This document shows, one piece after another, positions 1-6,464 of a DNA stretch of 6,464 nt. The first letter of the stretch is position 1, and every line of letters begins with the position of its first letter. The notes under the pieces are model-generated. The model saw nothing but the letters and a program-made list of their open reading frames with translations, searched no databases and was not told the DNA's origin. The DNA comes from Escherichia coli (lineage in GTDB: Bacteria > Pseudomonadota > Gammaproteobacteria > Enterobacterales > Enterobacteriaceae): NCBI RefSeq assembly GCF_003334255.1, contig NZ_QOWU01000101.1; one strand, written 5' to 3'. Both the position numbers and the translations under genes were made by a program.

Positions 1-48
1 TGTTCCGCGTGCGCATAGCCGCATTCACCGCATCACAAAATTCACTTT

Positions 49-106
49 AAAAAGGGTGGCAGAGCAGTCACGGAGTAAAACTGATACCGCCAAACGTCAC
101 CAGAAA
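49..106 (-). ncRNA. dicF: DicF small RNA (ftsZ-targeting sRNA of Qin-type prophages), mature 53 nt at 54-106 plus U-tract at 49-53
   Basis: The reverse complement of 54-106 reads TTTCTGGTGACGTTTGGCGGTATCAGTTTTACTCCGTGACTGCTCTGCCACCC, followed by TTTTT (plus-strand A5 at 49-53). This matches the E. coli DicF sequence as I recall it, with about one mismatch; the match is from memory, not from a search. It lies in the expected orientation, co-directional with the repressor-proximal leftward operon. Confidence 0.8.
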
Positions 107-440
107 ATTGATAACAGAGGGCGTTGCAGCGGGGTTGTCACTTAAGCGTATGGTCAACCTGACAACCCGGTGTCCTCAACGGGGAAGGAATAACCCCGCC
201 ATACTTACCGCCGCGCCATTTCGCGGAGTGCCACAACCGGAAGCGCGCGGTCGACGAAAATTTAATGACGACCTATACAGAGAGACTAACTTCGCCGGGC
301 GCTTTCGTGTTATGCCCTGACTTTTCAGGGATATATCCTTTTCAGTAAACTGTCAGTGCCGGATGCTCACCCGTGTCCGGCGCACGCACTCCACCTGACC
401 CGTGGAGAACTCCTTAATTACCAACCCTCAGGAGGGTGAA

Positions 441-524
441 ATGGATAAAAAGCAAATTGAGGCCCTGCAATCTATTATTGAAAAACAAGATGAAGCTATC
501 AGGATTCTTTTCATATCGCACTGA
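441..524 (+). CDS. Candidate 27-aa small protein (MDKKQIEALQSIIEKQDEAIRILFISH), antisense to the leftward early operon; may be the 5' part of a frameshifted gene continuing in another frame to 720
   Basis: One of the strongest translation-initiation contexts in the window: GGAGG at 431-435, 5-nt spacer, ATG at 441. The ORF ends at TGA 522-524. A second protein-like frame starts at ATG 526 and runs to TAG 718-720 (65 aa). Confidence 0.3.
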   Translation: MDKKQIEALQSIIEKQDEAIRILFISH

Positions 525-679
525 TATGATACTAAATATGCTTTCTGCATTAACGGCTGCGCTTGGTGGTACAAATACAAACGTATACCGCGAAGTTGTT
601 ATTCAACAGATAGATAAATTTGAAAAAACCATAGCAGGTATTAATGCTCATCTTGCAGAACAAGAGAAAGACCATGCTC

Positions 680-1093
680 TTATGGCAATTTCTTCAGTAG
701 CTCTCCCGAAAGTTGAGTAGTTTTAATTGTTGTTTTGAAATAATCACTGCTTTCACATTTGAGTGATTTCATGGCAATCCAAATGCGGGCCTCTGTGCCT
801 GCATTTGGTTCCAGTTGCTGTAGACGTTTTGCGTCTTCCAAAAGTAAGGCGATAATGTGTTTCAGCTTCTCATCATTTGCTTGATTCTTGTTTTCAGTCG
901 AATTCTGTCCGCCGAATAGGCGCTTCTCTTCATACAGACCTATAAAGGCACGACGCACGTTACCGGATATAGTATCGATGGTTTCCTTTTCTACAGTACT
1001 CAGGTCAAGAGTCGCCAGTTGAGAGCGAACCACATTAGATGCCATTTCCTGGAATGGTACTGGTAAATCTTTAAATTCCATCGTCAACCTCAT
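680..1093 (-). CDS. Hypothetical 137-aa protein, second gene of the repressor-proximal leftward operon; no family recognised
   Basis: Minus-strand ORF whose ATG (1093-1091) overlaps the TGA of the upstream YdfA-like gene (TGATG), suggesting translational coupling. Alternative start at ATG 1081. The predicted protein is helical and charged. Confidence 0.6.
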   Translation of the reverse strand: MRLTMEFKDLPVPFQEMASNVVRSQLATLDLSTVEKETIDTISGNVRRAFIGLYEEKRLFGGQNSTENKNQANDEKLKHIIALLLEDAKRLQQLEPNAGTEARIWIAMKSLKCESSDYFKTTIKTTQLSGELLKKLP

Positions 1094-1245
1094 CAGTCGG
1101 AGTTTCTTGCTAACCAGCGATGCGCGCCAGCTTCGGTTTTAAACGTTTTACTTTTGGTATACGTCATCGCGGTAAACGTGCCGTCCTGGTTGGGAAACAC
1201 GCCGCATACCAGAGATTCGCTGTTGCCAAGATCGATAGTATCCAT
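1093..1245 (-). CDS. ydfA: YdfA-like small protein (DUF1391 family), 50 aa
   Basis: The internal ATG at 1245 is preceded by GAGGT with a 5-nt spacer. The product MDTIDLGNSESLVCGVFPNQDGTFTAMTYTKSKTFKTEAGAHRWLARNSD matches my recollection of E. coli YdfA, the first gene after dicA in Qin. The 114-aa upstream extension in the ORF track has no SD and starts inside a hairpin. Confidence 0.6.
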   Translation of the reverse strand: MDTIDLGNSESLVCGVFPNQDGTFTAMTYTKSKTFKTEAGAHRWLARNSD

Positions 1246-1430
1246 GTTGACCTCATTTCCCCTTAACGCCGGGGGAGCGGAACAAAAACCTGCTGCGCTG
1301 TTATACAAAGTGTTCCCGCCGTCATGTTCATACGCCTCGGGCTGGCTACTTAACCCCTGACCACTGCCGGGTAACTCGAAGTATTGCCCTGCATTCTGTG
1401 GGGCGGGGTGGGTTGGTATGAAAAGAAGGA

Positions 1431-1467
1431 TACCCATAGGTATTTAAAAAGTAAATACCTATGGGTA
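1431..1467. promoter_or_regulatory. Perfect inverted repeat (15-bp arms, 7-bp spacer) downstream of the repressor gene; candidate OL-type operator overlapping an early-left promoter, possibly also a terminator for the repressor transcript
   Basis: TACCCATAGGTATTT (1431-1445) and AAATACCTATGGGTA (1453-1467) are exact reverse complements. On the minus strand, TTTACC-17 bp-TAAATA fits -35/-10 spacing within and around the repeat. The half-site CCATAGGTA recurs at 1926-1934 at the repressor start. Confidence 0.45.
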
Positions 1468-1509
1468 AATTTTTGCGGTGTCTTAACTGGTGACTAGTTG
1501 TTTGGTGAG

Positions 1510-1929
1510 CTATGATGCGTTTTGTGCTTTCTTTTTACGGATTTCTTCGTAGATCATATTGTAATACTGTTTTTTCTCTTCAAGAGTTTTTAATAATTTA
1601 TCCGCTTCACTTTCTGGCAGTTCGTCTAAGAGATCTAAAAAAATACGTTGTCGTGGCGTTAGAACCCTTGTTTCATAACTGGAGGCTGTGTTCGTTGATG
1701 ATGAAACGATACCATCCATCCATCCCCGGGGTAACCCAAAGGACTCTTCGATAATCTCCACCATATCATCAGCGATCCGTTTTTTTCCCTTTTTCCCCTC
1801 TGGGTACAACATTCTTGATACATAAGAAGGCTCGCGCCCGATCTTTCTGGCCACGTTAACCGCTTTACCATCGCATTTCTCATCACGAATTTTGATGAGT
1901 TGCTGTCGTCTAAATTCATATTTGTCCAT
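1510..1929 (-). CDS. Prophage repressor, 139 aa: CI-type HTH N-terminal domain with a DicA-like C-terminal region
   Basis: Complete ORF, divergent from the Cro-like gene. HTH segment AVNVARKIGREPSYVSRMLYPEG. The C-terminal LTPRQRIFLDLLDELPESEADKLL resembles the DicA C-terminus (LSPKELELLELFNALPESEQ as recalled). The ATG at 1929 sits 6 nt after a TATTAT -10 candidate, consistent with a leaderless mRNA. Confidence 0.85.
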   Translation of the reverse strand: MDKYEFRRQQLIKIRDEKCDGKAVNVARKIGREPSYVSRMLYPEGKKGKKRIADDMVEIIEESFGLPRGWMDGIVSSSTNTASSYETRVLTPRQRIFLDLLDELPESEADKLLKTLEEKKQYYNMIYEEIRKKKAQNAS

Positions 1930-2029
1930 AGGTAAATAATAGATGCGATTACCGCAAGGTAAACAACCTGTGGGTATTGACTTTTGTTTACCTGCGGGTA
2001 TTCTTTGCTGTGTTTACTAAGGAGTAGCT
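1930..2029. promoter_or_regulatory. Divergent promoter/operator region between the repressor and Cro-like genes
   Basis: CCGCAAGGTAAACAA (1952-1966) and the reverse complement of 1985-1999 (CCCGCAGGTAAACAA) form an inverted pair. A rightward TTGACT (1977-1982), 16-bp spacer and TATTCT precede the SD TAAGGAG (2018-2024) and ATG 2030. A leftward TATTAT sits immediately upstream of the repressor ATG. Confidence 0.55.
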
Positions 2030-2311
2030 ATGGAAGAATTAAGAATATTTCTCAATTCTCTTTCGTCAGATGAACAGCGTATGTTTGCATGCGAGTGTGA
2101 TACCAGCATCGGTTATCTAAGAAAAGCATTGAGTAAAGGTCAAGTGTTAGGGGCATCGTTATGTGTCCTTATTGAGCGAGCCAGTAATGGTGAAGTTACA
2201 CGTCAGCAACTAAGGCCTTTTGATTGGATGAATATTTGGCCCGAGCTGGAAGATACCAAAACGTTAACACAACCACTTTCTAGGAGCTTGATTCATGAAA
2301 ATCAAGCATGA
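2030..2311 (+). CDS. Cro-like transcriptional regulator, YdaS family, 93 aa
   Basis: SD TAAGGAG 5 nt upstream of the ATG. Divergent from the repressor. The segment ASLCVLIERASNGEVTRQQLRPFDW resembles Rac YdaS as recalled (CPAIERATRGEVLCEELRPDIDW). Confidence 0.8.
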   Translation: MEELRIFLNSLSSDEQRMFACECDTSIGYLRKALSKGQVLGASLCVLIERASNGEVTRQQLRPFDWMNIWPELEDTKTLTQPLSRSLIHENQA

Positions 2312-2720
2312 ACACATCCGCATGGCGATGAATGTCTGGGCGCATCCGGACGGCGAAAAAGTACCGGCTGCGAAAATTACCAAAGCGTATTTCGAGCTGG
2401 GAATGACGTTCCCGGAACTGTACGACGACAGCCATCCGGAAGCCCTGGCTCGTAATACCCAGAAAATTTTCCGTTGGCTGGATAAAGACACCCCTGATGC
2501 TGTTGAAAAAATTCAGGCTCTGTTACCGGCGATCGAAAAGGCAATGCCGCCTCTGCTGGTGGCCCGTATGCGCAGTCACAGCTCTGAATATTACCGTGAG
2601 ATCGTCGAACGGAGGGATCGGCTGGTGAAAGATGTGGATGATTTTGTCGCAGCGGCGATCGCCTGGGGCACCCTGACTAACAGTGGTGGTCAGCCTGGTA
2701 ATGCTGTTGTCGTGCATTGA
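2295..2720 (+). CDS. ydaT: YdaT-family protein (CII-like regulator, also annotated as toxin YdaT), 141 aa
   Basis: Starts MKIKHEHI and ends VVH, with an internal KIQALLPAIEKA motif, as in Rac YdaT from memory. GGAG lies 8 nt upstream. The start overlaps the end of the Cro-like gene by 17 bp. Confidence 0.8.
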   Translation: MKIKHEHIRMAMNVWAHPDGEKVPAAKITKAYFELGMTFPELYDDSHPEALARNTQKIFRWLDKDTPDAVEKIQALLPAIEKAMPPLLVARMRSHSSEYYREIVERRDRLVKDVDDFVAAAIAWGTLTNSGGQPGNAVVVH

Positions 2721-2788
2721 CCAACAATATTCATGCCGGATTTCTTCCGGATGTTCGAGGGTAAAGTTCGGTATCAGATGAGGTGAGT

Positions 2789-3826
2789 ATGGCTAATGCC
2801 TGGCTCAGATTGTGGCATGACATGCCAAATGATCCCAAATGGCGAACCATTGCCAGGGTCTCAGGACAGCCAATCGCAACAGTGATGGCGGTGTATATCC
2901 ACCTTCTGGTGAGTGCGTCACGAAATGTCACGACATGTCACGGCGTGTCACTACGTGGTCACATTGATGTCACGACGGAAGATTTAGCAAGTGCGCTTGA
3001 TGTGACGGAAGACGTAATTGATTCAATTTTGCATGCAATGCAGGGGCGGGTTCTGGATGGTGACCTTATTTCCGGATGGGAAAAACGTCAGGTGCTGAAA
3101 GAGGACAATGGTAACGTTTCGCAAACGGCAAAATCCCCGGCAGAGCGCAAGAGAGCGCAGCGGGAGCGCGAAAAGCTGCGGAAATATGATGCTGATTGTC
3201 ACGATGAGTCACGACGTGTCACGCATCTGTCACGACAAGTCACGACAGATAAAGATACAGATACAGAATTAAACCCCACACATAACGCGCGCATGCGCGA
3301 GAGTGCTCCAACCGGTGAGTCGCATGGTGCGCCGTTGCAGACAGCCGAACCTGAATACCTGGACGGCCTGAGCGAACCGATCGGGAAATTTTCGATGACT
3401 ACTGTCTGGCAGCCGTCGTCGGATTTTCGACAACGGGCAGCAGTGTGGGGTATGGCTCTGCCTGAGCCGGAATTTACACCTGCTGAGCTTGCCGCATTCC
3501 GGGATTACTGGATGGCGGAGGGGAAGGTTTTCACACAGGTTCAGTGGGAGCAGAAATTTGCCCGCCACGTGCAGCACGTCAGGACACAGGTAAAACCAGT
3601 CAGCAAGGGGGTAAGCCATGCAGCATCAGGTGGCACGGCATCACGGGCAGTTCAGGAAATCCGGGCAGCACGCGAACAGTGGGAACGAGACAACGGATTT
3701 ATCAGCAACGGAAATGGCCTGGAAGCTGTGGGAGCTTATGGGGGAGGTGTATTCGAACCGCTGGACTCAGAAGAACGGGGCCGCACCTTCGAAGCTCTGG
3801 ATTGCCCAGATTGGCACGATGACTGA
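2789..3826 (+). CDS. Phage replication initiator (lambda O-like, iteron-binding replisome organiser)
   Basis: Long ORF immediately upstream of the P-like gene. Two arrays of GTCACG iterons are embedded in its coding sequence, as in lambda O/ori. ATG 2789 is preceded by GAGG; the GTG at 2783 is an alternative start. Confidence 0.8.
   Translation: MANAWLRLWHDMPNDPKWRTIARVSGQPIATVMAVYIHLLVSASRNVTTCHGVSLRGHIDVTTEDLASALDVTEDVIDSILHAMQGRVLDGDLISGWEKRQVLKEDNGNVSQTAKSPAERKRAQREREKLRKYDADCHDESRRVTHLSRQVTTDKDTDTELNPTHNARMRESAPTGESHGAPLQTAEPEYLDGLSEPIGKFSMTTVWQPSSDFRQRAAVWGMALPEPEFTPAELAAFRDYWMAEGKVFTQVQWEQKFARHVQHVRTQVKPVSKGVSHAASGGTASRAVQEIRAAREQWERDNGFISNGNGLEAVGAYGGGVFEPLDSEERGRTFEALDCPDWHDD
2915..2978. 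repeat. Iteron array 1: six direct repeats of (t)GTCACGAc at 10-11 bp spacing
   Basis: GTCAC begins at 2917, 2927, 2937, 2947, 2958 and 2969, i.e. one helical turn apart. Confidence 0.7.
3196..3248. repeat. Iteron array 2: five direct repeats of (t)GTCACGAC at 10-11 bp spacing, followed by an AT-rich segment
   Basis: GTCAC begins at 3198, 3208, 3218, 3229 and 3239. The AT-rich stretch AGATAAAGATACAGATACAGAATTAAA (3247-3273) and the 12-bp palindrome CGCGCATGCGCG (3288-3299) follow. Confidence 0.7.
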
Positions 3827-4280
3827 ACAGCAAATCCGGCTGGTCTGCCGTCAGTGCATGGACCGCTGCCGGGCGGGTGAAACGTGGCCCCCAGACCTGG
3901 CTGAGTTTGTTGCACTGATTTCGGAGAGTGGGGCAAATCCATTTGGTCTTACGGTGGATGCAGTGATGGAAGAGTACCGGCGCTGGCGCAATGAATCCTG
4001 GCGATACGACGGGAGTGATAAATACCCGTGGCCACAGCCTGTGCTGTACCACATCTGCCTCGAAATGCGTACCAGAGGGATTGAGCGCCAGATGACGCAG
4101 GGTGAGTTAAAACGACTTGCGGAACGGCAACTGACGAAATGGGCAAAGCATGTTGGTAACGGGATGAGTGTTCCGCCAGTGCGACGACAACTGGAAGGGG
4201 CGAAACACCCGCAAGGGCCAACGCCAATTGAACGGCTGAAACAGGAATACGAACGCCGGAAGGCAGCTGGTTTTATTTGA
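3714..4280 (+). CDS. Replication protein P-like (DnaB helicase loader); start ambiguous
   Basis: The C-terminal two thirds resemble lambda P as recalled (YPW motif; PPDLAEFVAL versus PSPGQFVAW; TMTEQQ versus TTMEQV). The P-like frame is open back to 3618. Candidate starts: ATG 3618 (SD AAGGGGG, giving 220 aa), ATG 3714, ATG 3738, and ATG 3819 (ATGACTGA overlap with the O stop). The stop is at 4278-4280. Confidence 0.75.
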   Translation: MAWKLWELMGEVYSNRWTQKNGAAPSKLWIAQIGTMTEQQIRLVCRQCMDRCRAGETWPPDLAEFVALISESGANPFGLTVDAVMEEYRRWRNESWRYDGSDKYPWPQPVLYHICLEMRTRGIERQMTQGELKRLAERQLTKWAKHVGNGMSVPPVRRQLEGAKHPQGPTPIERLKQEYERRKAAGFI

Positions 4281-4313
4281 GTCTGAGAAACGATTTTGTC
4301 GGAGGAAATTTTA

Positions 4314-5030
4314 ATGGAAACCGTATTTGACGCACTGAAAGCACTGAAAAGAGCCTCTTCACAGGTAGTGGCGGCCCGCCTTGGAATCAGCCGTGAAGAT
4401 GCGGTCAACGAACTGTGGAAACTGAAGCGCCGCGGTGAAGCGGATAACAAGGGTTCGATGTGGTGGCTGATTCAGGCTGGTGAAAGTGAACCGGTGTCAC
4501 CGGTACCGAAAGTGACAGCGCAAATGCTGACTGAGGCGATTGAACAACATGGCCCACAAACGGCGGATGAGCTGGCACTGATGTTCGGGATTACCTCCCG
4601 CCGGGCGAATTCATCGCTGGCCATGGCAATCAGCAAAGGGCGTCTGATTCGCGTGAATCAGGGTGGTAAATTTCGTTACTGCATACCGGGCGCTGATTTA
4701 CCGGCAGAGCCGGAAGCTGCATCCGTAGCGGAAACCGATGGTAAAGCCTTTCCTCAGCCAGCAGGTGTTGCGTTACCAGTACAGGAAATGATGGCACAGG
4801 AAGAAATGAAAACAGAAATCGTGGAAGACATTGTGAGGTTACAGCCATCGATCACCGAAATGAAAGCAGATGACCTGATTCTACCATCGCTGCATGTGGC
4901 TAACCGCGAGCTGCGCCGGGCGAAAAGTGATGTCCAGAAGTGGGAGCGAGTCTGTGCTGCGCTGCGGGAACTGAACAAACACAGGGATATTCTCCGGGAT
5001 ATTACCGCCACCAGAGAGCAGCAGCGGTGA
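4314..5030 (+). CDS. Phage protein with two predicted winged-helix domains and a C-terminal coiled coil, 238 aa; function unknown
   Basis: GGAGGA at 4301-4306 with ATG at 4314; the track's 4296 start is a TTG. Two HTH-like segments ([18 protein letters not shown] and [24 protein letters not shown]). Its stop overlaps the next gene's GTG (GTGA). Confidence 0.7.
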
Positions 5031-5344
5031 GTGGCTGGAAGAAGTGGCGCTGGGCTGAAATCCTGATACTCCGGCAGTGTGCGGGAACGATGAGAGTCGA
5101 AAGCATCGGTTATCTGATTGGTCGTAGTGAGTCAGCCGTCAGGACGAAAGCGCGGGAACTGGGTATCAGCATGATTTTACGGGGTGATTTTCACCCGTCG
5201 GCAAAATATTCACAGCGTGATATTGAGCTGGCGCGGCAACTGCATCAGCGTGGCGTACCCCGACGGGAAATTGCCGAAAAGTTTGGGATGAAGTTGGGCG
5301 CAGTGAATAACTACGTTTATTTCGACAGGAGGGTTCAGGAGTGA
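5027..5344 (+). CDS. Small protein with two HTH-like segments, about 105 aa; function unknown
   Basis: GTG 5027 overlaps the upstream TGA (5028-5030). ATG 5090 is an alternative start giving 84 aa. HTH-like segments [21 protein letters not shown] and [19 protein letters not shown]. Confidence 0.6.
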
Positions 5345-5643
5345 GGGTGAGGATTTATATCGCCGGTCCGATGACGGGATATGAAAATTTCAACCGCGAG
5401 GCGTTTCACAGGGCGGAAGATGCGCTGAAACGGGAAGGGCATACCGTTTTAAACCCGGCAGTACTTCCGGACGGGCTGACTCAACCACACTACATGGATA
5501 TTTGCATGGCAATGCTCCGTTGCGTGGATGCGGTTTACATGCTGAAAGGCTGGCAGCAGTCGGCAGGTGCAAGGGCTGAGCTGGCACTGGCGGAGAAACT
5601 GGGCCATGCGGTGATTTTTCAGGAGGTGGGCAGTGAATATTGA
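5341..5643 (+). CDS. DUF4406 protein, nucleoside 2-deoxyribosyltransferase-like fold, 100 aa
   Basis: N-terminal RIYIAGPMTGY and the later SAGARAELALA glutamate motif are typical of the NDT/Rcl-like fold. AGGAGGG at 5327-5333 precedes GTG 5341, which overlaps the upstream TGA. GTG 5347 is an alternative start. Confidence 0.75.
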   Translation: MRVRIYIAGPMTGYENFNREAFHRAEDALKREGHTVLNPAVLPDGLTQPHYMDICMAMLRCVDAVYMLKGWQQSAGARAELALAEKLGHAVIFQEVGSEY

Positions 5644-5872
5644 CCCGGCGATAACGATTGATATGGCCCTGAACACCGGCCTGGCACTTCTTGGTTATTT
5701 CTACATCATGTTCTGCAGCGGACGATGGCTGTCACTGTTGTTCATGAAAAAATGGAATAAACGCCGTAAGCAGGAGCAACGCCAGAAGGCAATGGATGCA
5801 TTTTCGAAGCCTTCGGAATTGACGGCATGGAACCAGGGGATCCAGCTCGCGCAATCAGCAGAGGGGGTGTAG
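5633..5872 (+). CDS. Small predicted membrane protein (one TM helix followed by a basic stretch), 69-79 aa
   Basis: Hydrophobic segment ALNTGLALLGYFYIMF followed by KKWNKRRKQEQRQK. GTG 5633 overlaps the DUF4406 stop by 11 bp; ATG 5663 is an alternative start. Confidence 0.45.
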   Translation: MNIDPAITIDMALNTGLALLGYFYIMFCSGRWLSLLFMKKWNKRRKQEQRQKAMDAFSKPSELTAWNQGIQLAQSAEGV

Positions 5873-5902
5873 TAATCCTTGTATATCGGAGTGAAGAGAA
5901 AA

Positions 5903-6217
5903 ATGACGATCACAAAACAACGAGTAGAAAAAATCATATATCGCCATGAAATGGGACTGAACAGCGATGTCACTGCCGAAGAGGTTTATGACCTGGCTGT
6001 ACTGGCGCTGAATTTATCAAATATCGCAAACCTGAAGCGATACGAGCTTGATATGGATGGTTGCGACTCGTGCGGTCAGGATTGTGGCGCAGATATGACT
6101 GAAGATCCTGATGGTGATTATGTCCTGTTTGATGACGTGGTTAAGTTGTTTGAATTTGATACAACCACTCAAAAGTTAGAAATCCCGGCAAAGGAGGCAG
6201 CCAGTGAGCAAGATTGA
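5903..6217 (+). CDS. Hypothetical acidic protein with a CDSCGQDC cysteine cluster, 104 aa
   Basis: ATG 5903 lies downstream of GGAG at 5888-5891; the track's 5879 start is a TTG. The C-terminal half is strongly acidic (DMDGCDSCGQDCGADMTEDPDGDYVLFDD). The stop overlaps the next gene's start region. Confidence 0.6.
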   Translation: MTITKQRVEKIIYRHEMGLNSDVTAEEVYDLAVLALNLSNIANLKRYELDMDGCDSCGQDCGADMTEDPDGDYVLFDDVVKLFEFDTTTQKLEIPAKEAASEQD

Positions 6218-6464
6218 CTATCAGGCACTGCGTGAAAAGGCAGAGAAAGCAACTAAAGGAAGCTACATCGTAGGGCATACATCTGTTAACCAGCACGGCA
6301 ATTTAACAGGAGTTTTTGTTTGCCAAAAATGGAAAGGAGAACCCGGTGGCGTGATTGCGGAATGTCATATTAACTGCCTGATTGAAACAGATGCTCAGGC
6401 TTATGCAAACGCTGAATTCATAGCAGAGGCTAACCCGGCTACCGTGCTGGCACTGCTGGATGAA
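6204..6464 (+). CDS. Ead/Ea22-like family protein, 5' partial (runs off the window end)
   Basis: SD AAGGAGG at 6191-6197 with GTG at 6204. The frame is open to the window end, and the translation ends ...ANAEFIAEANPATVLALLDE, the motif I associate with Ead/Ea22-like proteins. Confidence 0.7.
   Translation, partial: MSKIDYQALREKAEKATKGSYIVGHTSVNQHGNLTGVFVCQKWKGEPGGVIAECHINCLIETDAQAYANAEFIAEANPATVLALLDE

Follow-up and report, generated by a model that had tools for sequence, protein, structure and literature searches.

We analysed a 6,464-bp stretch of Escherichia coli DNA (contig NZ_QOWU01000101.1 of assembly GCF_003334255.1; hereafter the window), which very probably covers early control (immunity) and replication in an ordinary mosaic lambdoid prophage from a widespread E. 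coli family. Sequence comparisons argue strongly for a single backbone in which a self-contained immunity cassette, at 1424-2288, was replaced, most likely by homologous recombination; the original prediction had seen two arms of different origin joined inside the repressor gene. The mosaicism itself is real. Four complete E. coli genomes (JE86-ST05, JE86-ST02, UCPROB-001 and UCPROB-002) carry the whole window on the chromosome at 100% identity, inside a full-length lambdoid prophage adjoining yccA, and in other genomes the matches cover at most 72% of it and are split into 3-4 pieces each. The family layout is exo, dicB, DicF and DUF1391, then repressor and cro, then YdaT, initiator and helicase loader, and the same family holds the CP-933/Sp prophages, phage Tritos and the decayed K-12 prophages Qin and Rac. 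What the window displays is textbook lambdoid exchange, in which immunity and initiator-domain modules and the contents of moron slots are swapped on a common backbone; such modular exchange has been described for this prophage family before (PMC5917428, PMC8630535, PMC5069750).

The boundaries of the cassette are sharp. We aligned 13 related loci base by base. Four of these relatives (L005-L008) share both flanks with the window and lack its cassette, carrying in its place a gene for a 214-amino-acid (aa) helix-turn-helix (HTH) protein with Cro (L005), a LexA-family cI with Cro (L006), RacR with an HTH protein (L007), or a 166-aa HTH protein with RelBE (L008, by appearance a candidate PaaR2 type). 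The immunity region is thus a point of exchange, as originally suggested. Homology to these four loci is lost at 1420-1423 (at 1463 in L008) and regained at 2289/2290. On the left, all aligned loci end in the same ...GTGGGGCGGGGTGGGTTGGTATG, with GGTATG at 1420, and continue into palindromes specific to the cassette type; on the right they are unrelated through 2288 and then share TGATTCATGAAAATCAAGCATGAACAC. Because these edges are sharp and shared at the level of single bases, we take 1424-2288 as the exchanged unit. The left flank is a leader that is also conserved in K-12 Rac and phage Tritos, with complete divergence after about 1420, and the first conserved sequence on the right is the YdaT operator.

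The histories of cassette and flanks are discordant. Both arms have the same closest relative, L005, which is identical to the window at 100% (1-426), 99.8% (427-1089) and 95.8% (1090-1423) on the left and at 99.5% (ydaT), 100% (initiator N-domain), 96.8% and 99.8% (P) on the right, and which has no similarity to the cassette. Loci L009-L012 carry the cassette at 99.0-99.5% identity next to left flanks of 91-93% and a ydaT of 83-91%. With a shared nearest relative for the two arms and another history for the cassette, the topology is A-[X]-A and not A|B. About 42 of 60 records, sampled at even spacing from the 4,872 that match, run in a single place from the left arm (starting at the DicF end, or in four cases at DUF1391) through ydaT or beyond, so the left and right arms are normally linked. 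The cassette is present at 80% coverage or more in 822 of 5,426 complete E. coli genomes, nearly always at 95% identity or more, and no record of the phage collection carries it whole. Six cassette-bearing loci join it to replication modules of at least four other kinds (a 320-aa HTH protein with a DnaC-like ATPase; a 356-aa protein with DUF977; a 356-aa protein with an ATPase; DUF1376 with P), and their left-arm cargo differs as well (ydfB/ydfC, or a Rha insertion); the constant surroundings are DicB to DUF1391 on the left and YdaT on the right.

The cassette brings its own operators. The motif TACC-N4-GGTA occurs in four exact copies in the window (at 1431, 1456, 1950 and 1989; 0.04 expected) and once more, with one mismatch, at 1965. 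It is found in 6 of 6 loci with the cassette and in 0 of 7 without it, including those that share both flanks, so that motif and DNA-binding domain occur together. Three of the sites separate the divergent repressor and cro-like genes, the arrangement of a lambdoid switch, and their order and spacing are those of the cI-cro intergenic region of phage mEp043. The other two, both exact, lie where a lambdoid phage has its leftward operator and promoter (O_L and P_L), the promoter here being putative. Independent support comes from phage mEp043, which has the same half-sites, likewise three at its rightward operator (O_R) and two, 25 bp apart, at O_L, where a putative PL is annotated; its O_R and cro DNA is homologous to that of the window (64.7% over 309 nt). 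In the window the O_L pair also forms a perfect palindrome (16+16 nt, 5-nt loop) just downstream of the repressor stop codon, which on the minus strand is followed by TCCTTCTTTT and scores as terminator-like; the two O_L sites of mEp043, in contrast, do not lie within an extended palindrome. Besides its operator role, the palindrome might stop read-through from the repressor promoter P_RM into the toxic dicBF operon.

The candidate repressor encoded between these operators is chimeric at the level of its domains. Its residues 1-72 are 76% identical (55/72) to the DNA-binding domain of mEp043 cI, with the alignment stopping at residue 86, while residues 89-139 are identical at 36 of 51 positions to the tail of the phage Tritos CI and at 33% to that of DicA, both of which have a different XRE-type HTH. 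The NCBIfam DicA model (NF007257) is matched by residues 86-136 only, at 24.5 bits against a cut-off of 101, which leaves the protein outside the DicA family. Pfam gave no match even at E<=10 and, at 139 aa, no S24 peptidase domain was found; among solved structures in the PDB no relative appeared, the best E-value (0.078) being at chance level. The full length does match PHROG 5736 ('transcriptional regulator', 6e-70), and the same protein is fixed in the 822 genomes. These two observations, together with O_L sites that lie to the left of the tail and yet fit the specificity of the DNA-binding domain, indicate that the fusion is old, lies inside the cassette and is not the join of two arms. 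PGAP calls the product a 'hypothetical protein' in spite of its frequency.

The cassette would act as a co-adapted specificity unit. By binding TACC-N4-GGTA at O_L the repressor would shut the leftward DUF1391/DicF/dicB operon, and at O_R it would shut the rightward operon of cro, YdaT and the replication genes. The leftward promoter would drive DUF1391, the cargo open reading frame (ORF) at 680-1081, DicF and then dicB, in parallel with the control of dicBp by DicA in Qin (PMC10448788). The cro-like protein would oppose the repressor, and at an operator of its own YdaT would take the role of CII. That YdaT belongs to its namesake family is evident from its sequence (93% identical to YdaT of L008) and from the cognate operator at the ydaS/ydaT junction: TTGATT-N6-AATCAA is the footprinted site of the CP-933P protein (PMC9986795). 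The YdaS and YdaT of the original prediction are seen here as a YdaS-like cro gene and a ydaT gene; the cro-like product, named 'YdaS family HTH' in some records, matches Pfam YdaS (PF15943) in part (25.2 bits, E 1.4e-5, model positions 32-62/65). In published work on this family, repressor, YdaS and YdaT are the CI, Cro and CII equivalents, dicA, cI and paaR2 occupy the same slot, and immunity regions recombine to give heteroimmune phages (PMC5917428, PMC8630535, PMC9986795, PMC10448788).

A fusion of a Qin-type left arm to a Rac/lambda-type right arm, by one crossover within the repressor gene, would account for several features of the window. The repressor tail resembles the DicA and Tritos repressors and the DNA-binding domain does not; K-12 Qin matches the left side only and ydaT and ydaW of K-12 Rac the right side only; and Qin similarity is missing from the right arm and from the half of the cassette next to O_R. 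We nevertheless regard this fusion as highly improbable. The two arms have one closest relative and are linked in most matching genomes, every junction seen in a swapped relative lies outside the repressor gene, and the operators on both sides of the supposed joint belong to one specificity, so the unit spans it; a bi-modular repressor there is, but not a junction within it. The age of the repressor fusion, fixed in so many genomes and covered end to end by one PHROG family, speaks against it as well. Nor are the arms Qin-like and Rac-like: within the left arm, 1258-1420 matches Rac and not Qin, and Qin keeps ydfX, a ydaT-like remnant, from which it follows that Qin and Rac are decayed copies of one layout and not two architectures. 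The proposed contrast of an AT-rich left and a GC-rich right does not hold, since GC content alternates along the window: 0.531 (1-426), 0.403 (427-1089), 0.527 (1090-1423), 0.403 (1424-2288), 0.525 (ydaT), 0.50-0.57 (2721-5643) and 0.46-0.47 at the right end. It tracks modules and not sides, at about 0.53 in the backbone and 0.40 in the swappable units, and GC at third codon positions (GC3) agrees, with 0.26-0.40 in slot and cassette genes and 0.51-0.59 in backbone genes from DUF1391 to DUF4406. Contrary to the original supposition, an immunity junction also fails to explain the unrecognised cargo on both sides, because the cargo has breakpoints of its own and conserved blocks stand between it and the cassette.

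How the cassette edges arose is a separate matter. They coincide with functional limits (immediately outside O_L on one side and, on the other, the first base of the YdaT operator and ribosome-binding region), which is where selection would trim the products of illegitimate recombination at random points; selection on such products, reportedly a general model of lambdoid mosaicism in the Hendrix and Juhala line of work, could also yield sharp shared boundaries. We consider this route unlikely here, given that in every locus compared the flanks match at 90-100% over hundreds of bases, which offers plenty of substrate to RecA or to the exonuclease and recombinase of the prophage itself, and that the junction positions are identical across five unrelated cassette types. 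Homologous recombination within the two conserved flanks, the leader ending in GGTATG at 1420 and the YdaT operator and start at 2288, is the more probable mechanism. E. coli genomes hold several similar lambdoid prophages (a median of 2 and a maximum of 16 matching places per genome), which can confuse assemblers, but a chimeric contig joining two prophages is almost certainly not the source of the mosaic: four complete genomes, from strains of two different names (JE86 and UCPROB), carry the identical window, and every module junction recurs in many other complete genomes. Several points weigh against our preferred reading of one backbone with a replaced cassette, or limit it. Detailed alignment covered 13 loci, and the genome-wide figures are BLAST summaries and not a full census of breakpoints; the replacement may have run in either direction, with this or another cassette ancestral in the backbone; repressor binding to the operators, and immunity itself, are predictions from sequence. 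Promoter-like sites in the window do not exceed the count expected by chance, so the case for P_R and P_RM is purely one of position, and P_L scores below the scan threshold.

Features of the 6,464-bp window (positions of the whole window; aa, amino acids; L005, closest relative of both arms)
Feature	Position	Strand	Evidence or content
Conserved DicF block of leftward dicBF-type operon	1..426	-	92.5% identical to K-12 Qin, 100% to L005
DicF small RNA	54..105	-	Rfam RF00039, 70.1 bits (gathering score 48), full length 1-52
Variable cargo slot	427..1089		GC 0.40; two ORFs of unknown function, 490-720 (+) and 680-1081 (-)
DUF1391 gene (YdfA/YdaF-like)	1093..1245	-	PGAP; tblastn protein identity 90% to Qin YdfA, 82% to Rac YdaF
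Conserved leader, left homology flank of cassette	1246..1423	-	ends ...GTGGGGCGGGGTGGGTTGGTATG; conserved in 13/13 compared loci having it
Immunity cassette (O_L/P_L, repressor, O_R/P_RM/P_R, cro-like gene)	1424..2288		865-bp exchanged unit; GC 0.403, GC3 0.32-0.40
O_L-like operator pair, 25 bp apart	1431..1467		TACCCATAGGTA (1431-1442), TACCTATGGGTA (1456-1467)
Putative P_L	1431..1467 region	-	TTTACT-17-TATCCT; hexamers read by eye, 8/12 matches, below scan threshold
Predicted repressor, 139 aa	1510..1929	-	mEp043-cI-type DNA-binding domain (aa 1-72), DicA/Tritos-type C-terminal tail (aa ~87-139)
P_RM-like site	1963-1936	-	TTTACC-16-TATTAT; overlaps O_R operators
O_R-like operators	1950..2000		TACCGCAAGGTA (1950), AACCTGTGGGTA (1965, one mismatch), TACCTGCGGGTA (1989)
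P_R-like site	1977-2004	+	TTGACT-16-TATTCT; overlaps O_R operators
Cro-like/YdaS-like regulator, 93 aa	2030..2311	+	PHROG 35, 8e-22
YdaT operator O_M, TTGATT-N6-AATCAA	2288..2305		TTGATTCATGAAAATCAA; one exact match, 0.02 expected; spans ydaT start codon
YdaT (CII-equivalent regulator)	2295..2720	+	7e-83 to PDB 8bt1 (crystallised CP-933P protein); Pfam PF06254 YdaT_toxin 1e-10
Replication initiator (O-analogue), N-domain with internal iterons and DnaT-like C-domain	2789..3826	+	PHROG 1408/3729 'replication initiation protein', PHROG 3992 'primosomal protein'
Iterons GTCACG, ~10-nt phase	x4 2917-2974; x5 3198-3244	+	9 in-phase copies in initiator gene
Recurrent intragenic recombination joint in initiator gene	3249..3267		locus breakpoints at end of second iteron cluster
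Lambda-P-family helicase loader, 153 aa, N-terminally short	3819..4280	+	Pfam PF06992 Phage_lambda_P, 56.5 bits, E 3.7e-15, model 53-161/162; phrog_109 positions 74-236
DUF1627 gene (YdaW-like)	4314..5030	+	PGAP; 58% protein identity to Rac YdaW
Nin-like cargo	5027..6464	+	HTH ORF 5027-5344; DUF4406 5341-5643; frameshifted DUF4752 5633-5949; ORF 5903-6217; Ea22-like start 6204

Among the closest known systems are the CP-933P/Sp12-type prophages of E. coli O157:H7 with their PaaR2, YdaS and YdaT (PMC8630535, PMC9986795). They have the same backbone as the window, with a dicB/DicF left arm, YdaT and its TTGATT-N6-AATCAA site, a DnaT-like initiator, P and DUF1627, and the same CI/Cro/CII-equivalent logic; L008, with its candidate PaaR2-type HTH and RelBE cassette, is 91-99% identical to the window across 2289-5626. 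Their repressor, operators and cro are unrelated to those of the window, whose cassette is without a toxin-antitoxin pair and whose 139-aa repressor has an mEp043-type DNA-binding domain. Phage mEp043, the relative in immunity, differs from the window elsewhere: its cI has 228 aa and an S24 self-cleavage domain where the window repressor has a short DicA/Tritos-type tail, and it carries N and a lambda-type cII, with replication of the Phage_rep_O type and no dicBF or YdaT.

The window aligns collinearly with one prophage, its own source in the four genomes, and not with Qin, Rac or lambda, which we compared locally by blastn and, with the window proteins, by tblastn. Qin (dicA, dicC and the dicBF operon; PMC10448788, PMC5069750) aligns at 1-426 (92.5%) and 1100-1283 (90.2%) only. 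The window repressor sits in the Qin dicA slot and would control a dicBF-type operon, and its tail is distantly DicA-like, but there is no dicA or dicC homology beyond that tail, and other ORFs take the place of ydfB and ydfC; Qin has no replication arm, and its ydfX product is 36% identical to the window YdaT (E 2e-6). Rac (racR, ydaS, ydaT, ydaU, ydaV, ydaW) has the same gene order as the window. Its DNA matches at 1-59, 1112-1249, 1258-1420 (the leader, 87%), 2289-2318, 4301-4426 and 4537-4727 (76-97%), with the ydaT start and operator conserved, and its further protein relatives are YdaS (37% over residues 40-93) and YdaT (31%). The 'Rac-type' label for the right arm therefore finds some footing in short islands at 2289-2318 and in parts of 4301-4727, but 1112-1420 of the left arm matches Rac too. 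For racR, ydaU and ydaV tblastn found no match in the window, which leaves no ordered set of Rac homologues: the window initiator is not of the YdaU/DUF1376 type, its loader is P-type and not a DnaC-like YdaV, and dicB/DicF stand where Rac has kilR/KilS.

With lambda and the classical imm434 and imm21 hybrids the window shares a layout, from O_L, repressor, O_R, cro and a CII equivalent to an initiator with internal iterons and P. The lambda-type 'imm' unit likewise extends from O_L to the end of cro, and there too the initiator N-domain with its iterons is separable from a P-interacting C-domain. A lambda-type right arm holds only at the profile level, for P; the early region compared has no DNA or tblastn similarity to lambda, the repressor lacks S24, YdaT stands for CII, the initiator is not of the Phage_rep_O family and no N gene was seen in the window. 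In direct comparison with lambda, whole-genome blastn gave one 50-bp match in ea22 and tblastn of the window proteins against lambda 34400-41100 (sieB to ninB) nothing at E<=0.01.

Phage Tritos (L016, OV696610.1), a sequenced phage, has the whole layout of exo, dicB, DicF, ydfCBA, CI, Cro, YdaT and initiator; its YdaT gene carries the annotation 'Rha family transcriptional regulator', apparently in error. A paper of earlier date had reported no DicF or DicB matches among about 2,000 phage genomes. Another record, PP818812.1, is labelled 'Actinobacillus phage vB_Apl-pPE4' and shares, at 86.5% identity, lambdoid early genes of the E. coli type (ydaT, dicA, primosomal and replication proteins); its host label seems out of place. 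Among 14,050 matching places, 166 are on plasmid records and not on chromosomes, and these could be phage-plasmids or integrated prophage fragments. In the source prophage the order is integrase, exonuclease, DUF1482, dicB, the window, hokD, DUF968, RusA, Q, tRNAs, lysis genes, terminase and portal.

DicF and the YdfA-like gene are where the original prediction placed them; the latter resembles Rac YdaF as well as Qin YdfA, at the lower identity given in the table. DicF was the sole match of an Rfam scan of the window, even at E<=1, with no other structured RNA; dicB is just outside, annotated 135 bp leftward in the source record. Just downstream of the DicF 3' end, window 1-59 is 93% identical to a Rac sequence (L003 8358-8416) that adjoins the 3' end of the Rac small RNA kilS and overlaps it, from which we take it that DicF and KilS share a 3' flank and terminator context while their bodies differ. 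In the adjoining cargo slot, homology to relatives ends at 330-443 and resumes at 665-1100, and in other loci the slot is filled by ydfB/ydfC, by a Rha gene or by different ORFs. The PHROG matches of its two ORFs (18692 and 1363) are to families without a known function, and PADLOC defence-system models gave no match to these ORFs or to the cargo genes after 4991, except one at chance level (E 0.008).

The predicted O-like gene with iterons is present too. In its layout, with iterons in the gene and P following, the initiator appears to work like O without belonging to Phage_rep_O, for its one Pfam match is DnaT (PF17948, residues 201-266). GTCACG occurs 10 times in the whole window against 3.0 expected, and the iterons are present only where the N-domain is shared (L005-L008, L011-L013 and Tritos) and absent from L009, L010 and L014; this co-variation of iterons and N-domain is what a functional analogue of O would show. 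Lambdoid initiators are classically divided into an origin-binding N-domain and a loader-binding C-domain, and the joint at the end of the second iteron cluster fits that division. L011-L013 share 1040/1100-3267 with the window and then diverge, having, like Tritos, the N-domain and iterons in common but not the C-domain, and many records end at 3267; conversely, L014 shares 3249-5626 (C-domain, P and beyond) and not 2535-3248 (N-domain and iterons). The loader has no tblastn match in lambda P itself. PHROG 15931 (482 positions) spans initiator and P as one protein, and within the initiator gene the P frame stays open for a further 67 codons upstream (ORF 3618-4280), which points to O-P fusions or to another start site in relatives. 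Further right, cargo breakpoints fall at 4991-5005, 5334-5338, 5626-5629 and 6205/6235. To the right of the replication genes, decay is suggested by the frameshifted DUF4752, by a truncated Ea22-like gene (6204-6464) and, in the source record, by split DUF551 genes (L001 26204-28174).

The sole mildly new element is a variant, without S24, of an mEp043-type repressor, carried by about 15% of complete E. coli genomes. We put forward tentatively, as a possibility somewhat short of even, that it is a natural domain-swap form of mEp043-type immunity, which would have kept the DNA-binding domain, operators, cro and specificity and exchanged S24 for a DicA/Tritos tail, uncoupling the prophage and the toxic dicBF from the SOS response. 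If so, control would pass to an antirepressor or to spontaneous bistable switching. A Rem-like antirepressor, which would explain induction, was sought in the source prophage: the ORF at the position equivalent to that in Qin (L001 28963-29241) is unrelated to Rem, and tblastn of Rem against 46 kb of the prophage gave nothing below E=0.47.

Once its modules are named after K-12 remnants, any intact prophage of this family looks like a hybrid of Qin and Rac, a misreading that is corrected here. The results have little importance beyond annotation. The base-precise cassette boundaries, the operator motif and the second joint, which lies within the initiator gene, help to predict which resident prophages would be homoimmune and can serve to type E. 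coli prophages by their immunity and replication modules.

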